A DNA stretch of 64,000 bases from Chlamydiales bacterium (GTDB lineage: Bacteria > Chlamydiota > Chlamydiia > Chlamydiales > JAJFMA01), in contig JAUXSF010000018.1 of the NCBI GenBank assembly GCA_030679955.1, positions 4,320 to 68,319 of the forward strand, given 5' to 3'. Under the pieces are notes generated by a model. The model was not told the DNA's origin. It did no database searches and was given only the letters and a program-made list of their open reading frames with translations. Below are positions 45,641 to 50,150 of the stretch, one piece after another; positions within the stretch are counted from its first letter, which is position 1, and the number at the start of each line of letters is the position of its first letter. The position numbers and the translations under genes are program-made.

Positions 45641-47956
45641 ATGATAAGTGCTTTTGATCGCATTAGAGAACATATAAGTTATCCTCAGATTGTAGCTATT
45701 GCAGTACCTGCCTTCTCATCAGTTGTAGAGGCTGCTTCTAGGGCTCTTAAGAAGCCAGAAGAACAAAATAGTTATTTTGGCATTGGTTTTTTTACGGTAT
45801 GTGTATTAGGTAGTTCACTTTTGCTTTGGCGTTCTACTAGAAATCGTCACGTTGTAACGGCGCCCGAAAAAAAGGTAGAGCTTGAAGCCCTTAGAGAAGA
45901 GAATCAGCCAAATCTGACTGTGGGAGCCATAGATGAGAGTCGCCCACCGAAACGTGCAGGGGCGGAGGCTGAAATTGAGCAGCTCTTCATTGCAGCGTTA
46001 AAGGAGGTACTTGCGGAAGACACAAAGCATCTACAAGAATTGACGGAGGTGGCGGGCTCTGACCGTAAAGCGCCTTCGGAAACAGTGACGACAACCCTGC
46101 AACCATGTGAGTTTACTCATTTACCTGAACCCCAGTTGAATGCGGGTGAAGTTAGGGATCTGGATCATTTGTACACGCAATTGGAGAAGAGGAATTTCTG
46201 TTTTCCAGCCGAACGTCTGATAGATGCCGCTTACATGTACGTGAACGAGATTTATTCCAGAGTGGCGAGTAAAAATAACCTGGCACACTCTTCTGCCATA
46301 TTCTCTAAAAAACTGGCCTATTATCGATGCGCGCTTCGGTCGGTTAGCAAATCGAATAACTTTGCACTGCTTATCGATCTCGTGAAAAAAAACAATTTGA
46401 ACGACCTGATTATCGAAATGCGCGCTCTAAAAATGGACATCGAGCAAAATTCTGTAACTCGCAGGCTAGGGCCAAAGCTAAAGAAATTGGCGACTCAGGA
46501 TATTGAAGAACTTGTTTTTGTGCTGGAATTGGTTCAAAAGTTAATGCTGTCAGAGGCTGGTCAACGGGCTTTAGCGCAAAAGTGTAATAAACATATCGGT
46601 GGTCATTCAAAGACGCCATTCAATGAACTCATTTCAACCATCAATTTTCGCATCACCATGGTGTTGGATCTTACCAACCCATCAAATTTAGATGAGTGCA
46701 ATCGTCCTGCTGCTGCTCTTCTTAAAGAATATTTTCCACTTTTTAAAAGTCATTGTCAGAGAATTAAGGAAGCGCTGATTCCAATAAATGAAGAACGACT
46801 AGGCTACGCCCTTGACGAACTAGTGAAGTTAAGAAATAACTTTCACGACGCCCAGCAGCAGTCGGAGGAACTTTTTGCTATTTGTGATGGAGCAATGGGG
46901 ATAACAAATACACTTACAGAGCTCGCCAACCTCACTGATACAACTATTTTGGCTCTAAAATTAGAAAGAGGAGATGTTTTTACTTTTGAAAATAACCTCA
47001 AATTGTTTAATCAAGCCGACTTGCTGTCAGAAATGTTTTCCCACATAAACTGGGCCAAGTTATGCGAATCAACCGTAGGCGGCTTAGTCTTCACGCAGCA
47101 TGTTCGACCATTATGCCAAACATTCATTCAAGGATGGGAGCGGATTAACCGCCAGGGCAAGGCTCTAGAAGAGGTTCAGAATCTTACACACACGAAAGGG
47201 GAGATTCATCCTATTGATCTCTTTAAGATGATTTCTCTGTCAGAAAAAATAGTTGACCCTCTACTTGAAATATTTGAAGTTATTCAAAAGCTTCAATTAG
47301 ATGAAGAGACGCAGAAGTTCAATACGGTGTTCTTTGGAGCAATAGCTGGCATACTGCCTTTCGTGGTAAGCGTTCCTTCTCTAGACAATGTAAGCGAAAT
47401 AAAAGCTCCACCAGCTCCAAAGGCGAAGCAGGCTAAGGTTACTAAACCTGAAGAGCCAGCGGCAGCAACGGAACCGGTTGTTGAGCGACCCAGCCAGCCA
47501 GTTACGCATTTGTTTGAAGATGAGCAGGCGCTAACAACCTATATTAATGACTTCCTTACTGCACCGGGAAGCGTAGCCAACGAGGAAGTGAAATCTGAAA
47601 GCAAGCGCCCTATTGCTTATCCTCAAAAAGTGCGAGTTCATAAAAAGCGGCAACCTCAGGGTAAGAAAGGCGCCTCTTCCACACCGGCTGCAAAAAAAGG
47701 TCCCAAAAGTGCTGCACCTGTAGCGGAACATCCTAAAAAAGTAGAGCCCGTCTTAAACTTTTCATCTAAATCGAGAAAGATGCGTTTTGTGGTCCAGACA
47801 TTATTTGAGGCTGGACACCGCTTTGTTAGGAAAAAAGGTAGCCACGAGTTCTGGCATAATGTGGCTACTGGAGATAATGTTGTACTAGCTAGGCATAGTA
47901 ATAAGCTTATAGGCAGGCGCACGGTTACCTCTCTAAACAAGAAGCTTACCAAATAG
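45641..47956 (+). CDS. large hypothetical protein: N-terminal paired hydrophobic segments, long helical body, basic/Pro-rich linker, C-terminal HicA-like domain
   Basis: 771 aa. Hydrophobic pair IVAIAVPAFSSVVEAA / YFGIGFFTVCVLGSSLLLW. C-terminal 59 aa KMRFVVQTLFEAGHRFVRKKGSHEFWHNVATGDNVVLARHSNKLIGRRTVTSLNKKL fit the HicA/YcfA pattern (L..GW...R..GSH..f.......v.vp.H....l..gt...I.k..). AT-rich upstream region. Confidence 0.7.
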   Translation: MISAFDRIREHISYPQIVAIAVPAFSSVVEAASRALKKPEEQNSYFGIGFFTVCVLGSSLLLWRSTRNRHVVTAPEKKVELEALREENQPNLTVGAIDESRPPKRAGAEAEIEQLFIAALKEVLAEDTKHLQELTEVAGSDRKAPSETVTTTLQPCEFTHLPEPQLNAGEVRDLDHLYTQLEKRNFCFPAERLIDAAYMYVNEIYSRVASKNNLAHSSAIFSKKLAYYRCALRSVSKSNNFALLIDLVKKNNLNDLIIEMRALKMDIEQNSVTRRLGPKLKKLATQDIEELVFVLELVQKLMLSEAGQRALAQKCNKHIGGHSKTPFNELISTINFRITMVLDLTNPSNLDECNRPAAALLKEYFPLFKSHCQRIKEALIPINEERLGYALDELVKLRNNFHDAQQQSEELFAICDGAMGITNTLTELANLTDTTILALKLERGDVFTFENNLKLFNQADLLSEMFSHINWAKLCESTVGGLVFTQHVRPLCQTFIQGWERINRQGKALEEVQNLTHTKGEIHPIDLFKMISLSEKIVDPLLEIFEVIQKLQLDEETQKFNTVFFGAIAGILPFVVSVPSLDNVSEIKAPPAPKAKQAKVTKPEEPAAATEPVVERPSQPVTHLFEDEQALTTYINDFLTAPGSVANEEVKSESKRPIAYPQKVRVHKKRQPQGKKGASSTPAAKKGPKSAAPVAEHPKKVEPVLNFSSKSRKMRFVVQTLFEAGHRFVRKKGSHEFWHNVATGDNVVLARHSNKLIGRRTVTSLNKKLTK

Positions 47957-49283
47957 ACTTGTTTAACGGTGTTGATGTTTTAGTCGCAAGTCTATTTGCC
48001 AATGCTTTGGTTGACCAAATCCAGCTTAATATAGTGCTTATGGACACGATACCTGCTATAGGTGCGCTGGCAATGACGCCGCCAAATAACACAATCAGTG
48101 ACAGGCTTATTCCTGAGGCCACTCCGCGTCCTGCACGCGTGCAGATGCCGTCGATGATCAGCTTTCCATCCATGCGCTGTTCAGGTGGTATGAGTACAAA
48201 TGCCAACTCTTTGGACGCATCAAAGAAAGTGTACTTCATAGCGCGTCCAGCGCAATAGTGTATTGATCCCAATAGGGTGACAATCGCTATCCACTCACCA
48301 TGTGACCAACCTAAATACGCCGCAAAATTCTCTACTCGAAGAAATAGAAAAAACGCGGCTTCCACCATTAACAAACCTATGGGAAGTACTAAGGCAGAAT
48401 AGATCCAAGGCCAGCGACTGAGCATTAGAGGGGCTGCTGTTAATGCGAATATTGTGGTTAGTGCGCTACTCCAAAACGATAAAATCCCCATGTAGTGACA
48501 GTAGTTCACAGGAGATGGATTTGCTTCTCGCAATATCTCCATAAAGATCACTTCTCCCAGAGAGTAAACAAGATAGTCCGCCAACACTAGCCAGGTAAGT
48601 AGGCGCAGGGGTGGGGATCGCATGCATAGCTGTAGACATTCGGATAAAGAACTGCCTTCAGGCTTAAGAGTGTTTCTGTGGTTGGATAGTAGTCTCCACA
48701 TGATAGCAAACAGGCCAAACGCTAATAGTCCTATGACAACAATTAGCAATGTCATTGTTGATAGTGAATTCGACCATACATTGGATGAGGACGTGCAAGC
48801 CATCACAATTGGTCCGGCTGACAATGCTCCCAAACTAGATCCCAACATTAGTGGGGCATAGTAGCGCTTAGCAAGCTCCACAGCTATGTATTGATTGATA
48901 GCTCCCCAAAAGAGGACGCCTACCACCGCTGGTTTCCACAGCTCTGCCATGACATAAAAAGTCATCGAAGATATAATTGAGATCCATGTTTGCTCCTTGG
49001 ATACGATAGGGTATATGAGCCAGGTAAATGCGGAAAAGAACGCCAAAAATGTTGAAACAGTGATCAAAAATACTCTTCGGAGCGAATAGTGCCTTAACAT
49101 CCAGCACAATAGCAATGTCATCAGAATCGAAGCCGGCAAGGCTCCAAAAAGCTCAAAAAGGGGGATTGTGTGAGCTCCTCCACCCAGGTCGGCCACCGCC
49201 AAGGTGTTGCGAACTGTTCTTAGAATCGTATGGTTGACGTTCAACAGAAAGACAACGCTAAACGCAATCAGAAACAAGTGCAT
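47946..49283 (-). CDS. NTT/TLC-family nucleotide-transporter homologue (short N-terminus)
   Basis: 445 aa, about 11-12 hydrophobic segments, TLC-family motifs (NHTILRTVRNTLAV, FYVMAELWKPAVVGVLFWGAINQY, FDASKELAFVLIPPEQRMDGKLIIDGICTRAGRG). The start overlaps the thiE 3' end by 26 nt. Confidence 0.85.
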   Translation of the reverse strand: MHLFLIAFSVVFLLNVNHTILRTVRNTLAVADLGGGAHTIPLFELFGALPASILMTLLLCWMLRHYSLRRVFLITVSTFLAFFSAFTWLIYPIVSKEQTWISIISSMTFYVMAELWKPAVVGVLFWGAINQYIAVELAKRYYAPLMLGSSLGALSAGPIVMACTSSSNVWSNSLSTMTLLIVVIGLLAFGLFAIMWRLLSNHRNTLKPEGSSLSECLQLCMRSPPLRLLTWLVLADYLVYSLGEVIFMEILREANPSPVNYCHYMGILSFWSSALTTIFALTAAPLMLSRWPWIYSALVLPIGLLMVEAAFFLFLRVENFAAYLGWSHGEWIAIVTLLGSIHYCAGRAMKYTFFDASKELAFVLIPPEQRMDGKLIIDGICTRAGRGVASGISLSLIVLFGGVIASAPIAGIVSISTILSWIWSTKALANRLATKTSTPLNKSIW

Positions 49284-49971: not shown

Positions 49972-50054
49972 GGTTGTTTATAGGTAAAAACCACCAAGGA
50001 GAAGCGAGAAAGTAACCGCAAAGCGATTACCCGTTGATTAACGGATATCCTGTA

Positions 50055-50150
50055 CATACACACTCCCTACGCTGGTACGAACCAGATCAGGTTGTAAGGG
50101 ACTCTCTCAGCTAAATCCGCCTTTTGGCGGTTCAGCACCCCTGGTGATTA
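50055..50150 (-). promoter_or_regulatory. TPP (THI-box) riboswitch
   Basis: The minus strand reads CACCAGGGGUGCUGAACCGCCAAAAGGCGGAUUUAGCUGAGAGAGUCCCUUACAACCUGAUCUGGUUCGUACCAGCGUAGGGAGUGUG. It contains the conserved GGGGUGC, CUGAGA, ACCUGAUCUGG and UACCAGCGUAGGGA elements in canonical order, and P1 closes as CAC/GUG. It lies about 85 nt upstream of the thiE ATG. Confidence 0.88.

Follow-up and report, generated by a model that had tools for sequence, protein, structure and literature searches.

A predicted TPP riboswitch upstream of a ThiE-derived protein and an NTT-family carrier in a Chlamydiales genome: a candidate module for thiamine-related import

Rodionov et al. are said to have predicted in 2002, by comparative genomics, transporters of thiamine or its precursors under the control of thiamine pyrophosphate (thiamine diphosphate, TPP) riboswitches, and none of the TPP-riboswitch transporter classes that we know of consists of TLC/NTT carriers. 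The chlamydiae studied so far are, to our knowledge, without a thiamine pathway; of two chlamydial genomics papers, none describes thiamine synthesis as present, the pathway being either recorded as missing or passed over without mention of thiamine. Every characterised NTT transports nucleotides or NAD+ (PMC5381601, PMC11317633), and PamNTT4 of Protochlamydia, an NAD+ carrier, branches apart from the canonical NTTs (PMC5381601, PMC7350145). Here we analysed a stretch of 64,000 nucleotides (nt) from a Chlamydiales bacterium (assembly GCA_030679955.1, contig JAUXSF010000018.1), called the window below, whose coordinates are used for all positions unless a locus label precedes them. We show that a predicted TPP-binding riboswitch heads the 5′ leader of a two-gene operon that encodes a divergent ThiE-family protein, which we designate E1, and an NTT/TLC-family carrier. 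A full-text literature search found no link of thiamine or TPP riboswitches to NTT/TLC carriers or ADP translocases, and thiamine and riboswitches are both absent from the NTT phylogeny paper, in agreement with the first-pass annotation of this DNA, whose author was not aware of a thiamine-type substrate having been shown for the family. Within the literature searched, two things are new here: a transporter regulated by a TPP riboswitch in a family with no earlier tie to thiamine, and the ThiE-derived protein that accompanies it.

An Rfam covariance-model scan of the whole window returned the TPP riboswitch model RF00059 as the sole match above gathering score, and the match covers the model from end to end (Table 1). 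The aptamer lies on the same strand as E1, 86 nt upstream of the start at 49959 (74 nt if the start is at 49971), where the first-pass annotation had put a THI box about 85 nt before a minus-strand thiE. Its ligand-contact motifs, CUGAGA (J3/2) and ACCUGAUCUGG...CCAGCGUAGGGA (P4/P5), are invariant in nine syntenic copies; the alignment of these nine aptamers has 48 invariant columns, and a covariance model of our own trained on them gives the window aptamer 89.1 bits. A regular-expression prescreen for THI boxes proved over-strict, recovering 2 of 7 syntenic copies, and was replaced by the Rfam scans and our own model. The open reading frame (ORF) of E1 can be read from 49971 (237 amino acids, aa); its true start is likely the second ATG, at 49959, because of the GGAG upstream of it and because the public gene call has 233 aa. 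The reading of the NTT gene used here is the maximal one, since no earlier start codon lies between its own and the preceding stop.

The two genes overlap by 26 nt, as the first-pass annotation had read them, and the ribosome-binding site of the NTT gene is buried in the 3′ end of E1. Between E1 and NTT, the consensus scan of the minus strand detected nothing promoter-like, and the terminator-like hairpins amount to one weak candidate, inside E1, against 2.7 expected by chance, no excess over shuffled sequence; the junction thus shows no separate promoter or credible terminator. That no other thi genes lie in the window was also borne out: neither tblastn with ThiD, ThiL, ThiM, TenA and canonical ThiE over the 64 kb nor Pfam scans of 44 of the 45 window ORFs of at least 110 aa found a further one. 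TPP enzymes are encoded in the window, namely a transketolase and the E1 alpha/beta subunits of a 2-oxoacid dehydrogenase, which points to a demand for the cofactor.

From the layout of the leader, we infer a translational OFF switch that responds to the ligand of the aptamer. Between the aptamer and E1, an anti-Shine-Dalgarno (anti-SD) segment, CUCCUUGGUGG, has two alternative partners, the Shine-Dalgarno (SD) region ACCAUGGAG (-14.6 kcal/mol) and the aptamer 5′ strand CACCAGGGG (-16.9 kcal/mol); the minimum-free-energy fold of the window leader shows it paired with the SD region. The same two elements recur in all 11 platforms inspected, as (C/U)(U/C)CC(U/C)UGGUG downstream of the aptamer (the variant of locus L011 being CCUCUUGGUGA) and as CCA(A/U)GGAG a few nt before the start codon; in the 10 loci computed, the duplex energies range from -12.8 to -16.4 kcal/mol for anti-SD with SD and from -13.7 to -18.6 kcal/mol for anti-SD with the aptamer 5′ strand. 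With TPP bound, the P1 region of the aptamer would be closed and CUCCUUGGUGG free to pair with the SD region of E1, turning translation off, whereas without TPP the same segment would pair with the aptamer 5′ strand and leave the SD region exposed. NTT would then be expressed through translational coupling to E1 or simply from the same mRNA. We prefer SD sequestration to an intrinsic terminator as the platform, because the one candidate hairpin, GUAAUCGC/GCGGUUAC with a U-rich run behind it, failed the scan criteria and has no conserved counterpart at the other loci. A promoter-like site stands further upstream (Table 1); with 7 such sites seen in a region where chance alone would give 4.5, its support is weak.

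The module is conserved well beyond this genome. A search with the NTT query of 185,579 species-representative genomes and JGI metagenomes, complemented by contig look-ups, yielded ~145 loci (labelled L002-L150 where they need to be told apart), and the window and 15 of its relatives, all of them chlamydia-like metagenome or metagenome-assembled genome (MAG) sequence, have a thi-linked NTT; just 2 thi-linked loci were among the 59 added by the JGI scan. E1 lies directly upstream of NTT in 14 of the 16 (window, L002, L007, L011, L015, L039, L050, L053, L082, L086, L127, L148, L149, L150), the two thi-linked loci without E1 being L145 and L005. Six loci have the architecture riboswitch-E1-NTT, five riboswitch-E1-NTT-thiE, and two (L148 and L149) riboswitch-E1-NTT-thiE-thiD-THI5; single loci have E1-NTT-thiE-thiL-thiD without a riboswitch (L002), riboswitch-NTT-thiE-thiL without E1 (L145), and NTT-thiL on a 5′-truncated contig (L005). 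Where the E1-NTT junction could be compared, seven other loci have genes that overlap by 4-14 nt or stand 9 nt apart, and L148 alone has a gap of 94 nt, possibly from a mis-called start. The intact aptamer was recognised by the Rfam TPP model or our own in 13 loci, L127 having a split copy and L002 none, and ~125 other loci of the family (~1.2 Mb searched) yielded no TPP riboswitch. Since the thi-linked NTTs are only 45-51% and the E1 proteins 25-46% identical, the linkage is old and under selection. The co-regulation of NTT by TPP, proposed from the window alone, can now be seen as a conserved property of the transporter and not an accident of one genome, because 13 further loci show the same association of riboswitch and NTT; in L145, NTT is itself the first gene behind the riboswitch and would be under its direct control.

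Several relatives deserve mention in their own right. The THI5 genes that close the thi operons of L148 (L148:12754-13692) and L149 (L149:13462-14400) score 306 bits to yeast THI5p and keep the K62/H66 motif GLKAMIHT and the CCCFC motif, so that what looks like a horizontally acquired suicide enzyme, the eukaryote-type hydroxymethylpyrimidine phosphate (HMP-P) synthase, is present in Chlamydiota. None of the thiazole-branch genes thiM, thiG and THI4 was found in any of the 16 loci, the loci themselves being what was scanned. In L127 the two halves of the aptamer, P1-P3 at 1692-1767 and P4-P5 at 1863-1926 (L127:1692-1926), are separated by ~95 nt and have a P1-like flank each; the split could stem from an insertion, from partial duplication or from the assembly. 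In L082 the NTT gene (L082:10770-12196) is split into three ORFs and is likely a pseudogene; the riboswitch (67.7 bits) and E1 upstream of it are intact.

The carrier itself is a complete but divergent NTT. Its closest relatives are ~48-49% identical, and those among them that are annotated belong to chlamydia-like MAGs. The AlphaFold model of the 445-aa protein (predicted local distance difference test score, pLDDT, 90.2; predicted template-modelling score, pTM, 0.90) has 12 long helices and superposes on AtNTT1 (9j3m) and CpNTT1 (9j3n) with template-modelling (TM) scores of 0.88/0.82 and 0.78, at 23-26% identity; as modelled, the 12-helix NTT fold is complete. A crude hydropathy count had given 9 helices, an under-count, and the AlphaFold secondary structure was used instead. 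The N-terminus, described earlier as unusually short, is indeed short; it is not unusual, since the whole subfamily measures 412-490 aa (median 455) and shortness is therefore a family trait.

With 196.9 bits on TIGR00769 (ATP/ADP antiporters), the carrier falls far below the cut-off of 387.2, and a neighbour-joining tree places the subfamily on a very long branch from CpNTT1. In AtNTT1, the charged residues K155, E245, E385 and K527 are reported from mutagenesis to be the transmembrane charges of functional importance, and the spacings 90/140/142 of the 9j3j chain residues K71, E161, E301 and K443 match this numbering exactly. Aligned to the PDB chains, NTT residues E114, E244 and R386 stand at the positions of E245, E385 and K527, so that three of the four charges are kept, whereas the equivalent of K155 is E44; the Lys of IPF(I/L)K(F/T)W occupies this position in the two solved carriers, and Glu does so in 123 of 124 family members. 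This charge reversal argues against ATP/ADP exchange, and the carrier appears to be not an ATP/ADP exchanger but a member of a deep-branching, chlamydia-restricted subfamily. Glu44 would go well with a cargo whose ring is cationic, thiazolium for example. Each of 80 species-level genomes contributed one member of the subfamily, most of them without thi genes nearby, and the thi-linked NTTs are set apart from the rest at just five specificity-determining positions (L49, R316, Q/H342, C/G346 and W421). These positions are suggestive without being diagnostic of cargo, as they are also present in L010, L013, L146 and L147 outside any thi context. Downstream of the L010 carrier (L010:6686-7681) lie genes for a phosphate transporter of the PHO4 family and for an amino-acid permease, and the phosphate carrier may bear on counter-exchange.

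The first-pass annotation had named the upstream gene thiE. The family and the fold stand; canonical thiE it is not, as E1 scores 118.8 bits on TIGR00693, below the equivalog cut-off of 145.1, and four binding-site residues are changed. On PF02581, the E1 copies score 102-155 bits (window 118), against 186-205 for the canonical thiE copies that lie directly downstream of NTT. The AlphaFold model of E1 (pLDDT 88.1) finds its best PDB match in Bacillus subtilis ThiE (2TPS; TM score 0.78-0.80, root mean square deviation 2.4), TenI reaching 0.69, and E1 is 28% identical to ThiE versus 21% to TenI (phmmer 68.5 versus 23.8 bits). The TenI pattern H57, G93, Q107, S112 is replaced in E1 by Q57, N93, H107, D112.

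Residues were compared in B. subtilis ThiE numbering among 13 E1 and 8 neighbouring canonical ThiE proteins. The pyrophosphate/Mg and thiazole-phosphate site residues of ThiE are reported in the 2TPS papers to be R59, K61, D93, D112, S130, T156, T158, K159 and S209. All 8 canonical proteins keep Q57, R59, K61, N92, D93, H107, D112, S130, T/S156, K159 and S209, with T158 in 7 of them (Gly in one). The window E1 has R59, H61, N93, D112, T130, S156, T158, K159 and G208/R209, that is, the changes K61H, D93N, S130T, T156S and I208G/S209R. In the E1 set as a whole, Q57, N92, H107 and D112 are kept and T158 and K159 mostly so, whereas Lys61 is found in none of the 13, position 93 is Asn in 11, position 130 Thr in 12 and position 209 Gly in 12, and T156 is lost, with Lys in 6 of 13. 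To judge by these residues, E1 is a distinct branch of the ThiE fold, with a remodelled pyrophosphate/Mg site and an apparent tendency to lose catalytic residues. In a profile search of 5.8 billion proteins, 8 E1-type proteins scored at least 261 bits and ordinary ThiE at most 202, and an exhaustive second search of 1.84 billion cluster representatives found ~25-30 clusters with the E1 signature, some of them also without H107, D112 or K159. The pattern suggests that the branch may trend towards pseudoenzymes. Among the representative proteins, further-decayed E1-like active sites were seen in P0268, P0271, P0272, P0274-P0276, P0288, P0294, P0303 and P0351, with the changes H107Y/F, D112 to S/E/N/P/K, T130P and K159 to N/C/S. 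All seven E1-family proteins whose context was traced adjoin an NTT; the generic ThiE matches P0118 and P0122 do not.

Based on these comparisons, we propose that E1 arose from ThiE through loss of the site for the pyrophosphate of hydroxymethylpyrimidine diphosphate (HMP-PP) and Mg2+, while Q57, which contacts the pyrimidine, was retained along with a portion of the phosphate site. It would bind or process the imported compound in the cytoplasm as a trapping or hand-over partner, without synthesis of thiamine monophosphate (TMP). The frequent gains of Lys156 and Gly209, along with Q57 and a lost HMP-PP site, would fit the binding of a thiamine phosphate ester and not the making of one.

A riboswitch reports the physiological ligand of its regulon directly, and such clues have earlier predicted vitamin transporters correctly. 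Since the link is conserved here and the riboswitch acts on NTT even where E1 is missing, we regard a thiamine-related cargo of the carrier as probable. Our working hypothesis is that, when TPP is scarce, NTT would supply the bacterium with a phosphorylated thiamine compound drawn from the host cytosol, either thiamine diphosphate itself or the monophosphate, which ThiL would then phosphorylate. The adjacency of NTT and thiL in L002, L005 and L145 would fit TMP as the cargo, and the mitochondrial TPP carriers Tpc1p and SLC25A19 are relatives of nucleotide carriers. TPP or TMP can be argued to be the form reliably present in any host cytosol; moreover, because the subfamily appears to be single-copy in the 80 genomes and is mostly without thi neighbours, a function shared by all members would be the import of a finished cofactor. 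We put forward TPP or TMP as the cargo, with E1 as its binding or processing partner, only tentatively, at somewhat less than an even chance. The overall explanation, in which a TPP switch, import of a phosphorylated thiamine compound by NTT and a partner role of E1 are combined, seems to us about as likely to be right as wrong.

Several points weigh against import of the finished cofactor. Genuine biosynthetic genes (thiE, thiD, THI5, thiL) are found in nine loci, where TPP import would leave them without a purpose, and since pyrimidine and coupling genes are present without a thiazole gene, the thiazole half rather suggests itself as the missing input. One can also argue that a carrier of the finished cofactor needs no ThiE-like partner and that an end-product importer makes the co-transcribed suicide enzyme THI5 look wasteful. 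The four NTTs that bear the thi-type signature have neither thi neighbours nor a riboswitch, and R316, Q/H342 and W421 hint that the substrate of the thi-linked NTTs may differ from that of the rest of the family, which would weaken the single-copy argument. Finally, the window E1 keeps R59, D112 and K159, so that a sluggish or altered TMP synthase is still conceivable.

Some of these points lead to the main rival reading, in which NTT would import the thiazole half in phosphorylated or adenylated form, as hydroxyethylthiazole phosphate (Thz-P), carboxythiazole phosphate (cThz-P) or the ADP-thiazole that eukaryotic THI4 makes from NAD. E1, an enzyme of ThiE or TenI descent, would then bind or convert the cargo, canonical ThiE would couple it to HMP-PP and ThiL would finish, a chimeric host-symbiont pathway in which the bacterium's own THI5 and ThiD make the pyrimidine and the host supplies the thiazole. 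The L148/L149, L002 and L145 operons accord with this, as they hold the pyrimidine branch, the coupling enzyme and/or the final kinase, and so does the lack of thiM, thiG and THI4 from the loci; E1 has lost the HMP-PP/Mg site yet keeps T158, K159 and G188 of the thiazole-phosphate site, and S209G, a smaller residue 208 and the T156K change seen in many copies would leave space for the second phosphate that ADP-thiazole has. NTTs, moreover, carry phosphorylated nucleotide-like cargo, and one of them takes up NAD+, the precursor of ADP-thiazole. However, thiazole phosphates are scarce and occur in thiamine-prototrophic hosts only, an unreliable supply for an intracellular bacterium, and six loci, the window among them, consist of E1 and NTT without canonical thiE, thiD or thiL nearby. 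The pyrimidine contact Q57 is invariant in E1, suggesting a ligand with a pyrimidine ring; thiazole genes may sit elsewhere in these genomes, beyond the scanned loci; and end-product transporters in biosynthetic operons are common, bioY and ribM being examples. On balance, we consider thiazole import unlikely, though it has a real chance of being right.

That the carrier takes NAD+, like PamNTT4, or ordinary nucleotides, its position behind the riboswitch being incidental to gene order, seems to us distinctly unlikely, even though the whole characterised family carries such cargo (PMC5381601, PMC11317633) and E114, E244, K350, D355, K358, E359, K374, D378 and R383 are common to the subfamily and the ATP/ADP carriers. 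Against it, the riboswitch link is kept across NTTs of 45-51% identity and directly precedes NTT in L145, and the Lys essential for ATP transport is Glu in the subfamily. An NAD kinase gene (PF01513/PF20143) beside NTT in 33 of 80 subfamily genome loci would also speak for NAD+, but it usually comes with xseA/xseB (e.g. L003:5007-5843), perhaps as inherited order, and adjoins NTT in none of the thi-linked loci. The string xseAB-(ispA-dxs)-nadK-recN is widespread in bacteria, and we have downgraded the NAD kinase adjacency to weak evidence for NAD+, as it resembles this ancestral string and is absent at thi-linked loci. We judge it very unlikely that E1 is a working, if unusual, TMP synthase for which NTT supplies a phosphorylated substrate, HMP-PP or Thz-P. 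E1 is the sole ThiE-family gene in the window, its fold is nearer to ThiE than to TenI, and it keeps Q57, R59, N92, H107, D112, T158 and K159; yet 8 loci hold a canonical ThiE in addition, so that E1 is something other than plain ThiE; Asn mostly replaces the Mg ligand D93, K61 is never Lys, and many E1-like representatives are without H107, D112 or K159. Import of TPP or TMP, with E1 as a partner, is the reading we retain.

If this reading is true, a cofactor of a new chemical class joins the NTT repertoire, so far made up of ATP/ADP, other nucleoside triphosphates and NAD+, a single-copy subfamily is defined in more than 100 chlamydial species, and a ThiE-derived partner protein has a new role. 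Were thiazole import true instead, it would mean a new NTT substrate class and a new activity in the ThiE/TenI fold.

Table 1. Positions of the riboswitch, the two-gene unit and other features in the window
Feature	Position	Strand	Remarks
TPP (THI-box) riboswitch aptamer	50046..50152	-	RF00059, 66.7 bits versus gathering score 54.3; E = 6.4e-11; model 1-105 of 105
Anti-SD segment CUCCUUGGUGG of the expression platform	49991..50001	-	Alternative pairing with SD or aptamer 5′ strand
SD region ACCAUGGAG	49966..49974	-	GGAG 6 nt before AUG at 49959
Promoter-like site TTAAAA-18 nt-TATAAT	50274..50303	-	~120 nt upstream of aptamer; consensus scan, 10/12 matches
E1, divergent ThiE-family (TMP-TENI) protein, 233 aa	49258..49959	-	PF02581, 118 bits, E = 3.7e-34
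AGGAGG ribosome-binding site of NTT gene	49291..49296	-	Inside E1 3′ end, 7 nt before ATG at 49283
NTT/TLC-family carrier, 445 aa, thi-linked subtype	47946..49283	-	PF03219, 237.7 bits versus gathering score 21; E = 3.4e-70
Transketolase	29130-31145		TPP enzyme
2-oxoacid dehydrogenase E1 alpha/beta	18063-20124		TPP enzyme
ORF of 771 aa	45641-47956	+	C-terminal HicA-like stretch (PF07927, 23.8 bits, below gathering score); converges on NTT gene, 11-nt overlap with NTT 3′ end
Two ORFs (582 aa, 182 aa)	50309-52613	+	No Pfam match; divergent from riboswitch promoter region; 582-aa ORF with long Gly/Ala-rich hydrophobic stretch
RHS-repeat protein, 1314 aa, then three small ORFs	57772-63948	-	Small ORFs 59441-60007, 58779-59336, 57772-58314; no Pfam match for these three
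Protein with C-terminal Ntox50 bacterial toxin domain	22-816	+	E = 2.3e-12
Protein of 895 aa, almost all ankyrin repeats	20273-22960	-	Typical of intracellular-bacterial effectors
Catabolic block	7536-20124 and 23735-26902		Beta-oxidation genes; methylcitrate-cycle PrpB/C/D-like genes 12276-15680; 2-oxoacid dehydrogenase E1ab/E2; fused B12-binding + MeaB + mutase protein, IcmF-like

Outside the two-gene unit, the RHS-repeat protein and the three small ORFs that follow it could be a toxin tip with its immunity array, and the catabolic block is unusually rich for a chlamydia-like genome.

Among known systems, the closest in logic are the thiamine and precursor transporters ThiT/YuaJ, PnuT, ThiBPQ, CytX, YkoEDC, ThiXYZ and ThiW, in which a THI-box leader likewise precedes a transporter sited with thiamine genes; here, too, regulon membership and co-localisation predict a thiamine-related cargo. 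Unlike the bacteria that carry the ThiT/YuaJ type, the carriers of the present module are obligate intracellular relatives that would draw on the host cytosol and not on the environment. Translational TPP riboswitches of the Escherichia coli thiM type also place after the aptamer an anti-SD segment that alternates between aptamer and SD and turns expression off on ligand binding, whereas the platform built from CUCCUUGGUGG and CCA(A/U)GGAG is specific to the chlamydial module and is known here from sequence. With the chlamydial and plastid NTTs (CpNTT1, AtNTT1, PamNTT1-5, SnNTT1-4), the window carrier has in common the Pfam TLC domain, the 12-helix fold, shared charges and, for the chlamydial ones, dependence on a host. 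It differs from CpNTT1 and AtNTT1 in its low identity, in being ~50-70 residues shorter and in the Glu that replaces an essential Lys, and further in lying under a riboswitch and being paired with a ThiE-like gene. In function, the proposed import would resemble that of Tpc1p and SLC25A19, which move TPP, in exchange for TMP or nucleotides, into a compartment unable to make it; these belong to an unrelated fold and family, act in eukaryotic organelles and have neither a riboswitch nor a partner enzyme.

For E1, the nearest relatives are ThiE and TenI. With the TMP synthase ThiE it shares the TIM-barrel fold and Q57, N92, H107, D112, T158 and K159, but it is without K61, D93, T156 and S209; it differs from TenI, the thiazole tautomerase, in the four residues of the TenI pattern, and forms a clade of its own that is always adjacent to an NTT. 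The pairing of E1 with NTT recalls trapping pairs such as PnuC-NadR and PnuT-thiamine pyrophosphokinase, in which the gene of a vitamin transporter is likewise coupled to that of a cytoplasmic protein acting on the cargo. In those pairs the partner is a kinase of known reaction, whereas E1 is a ThiE-derived candidate partner.

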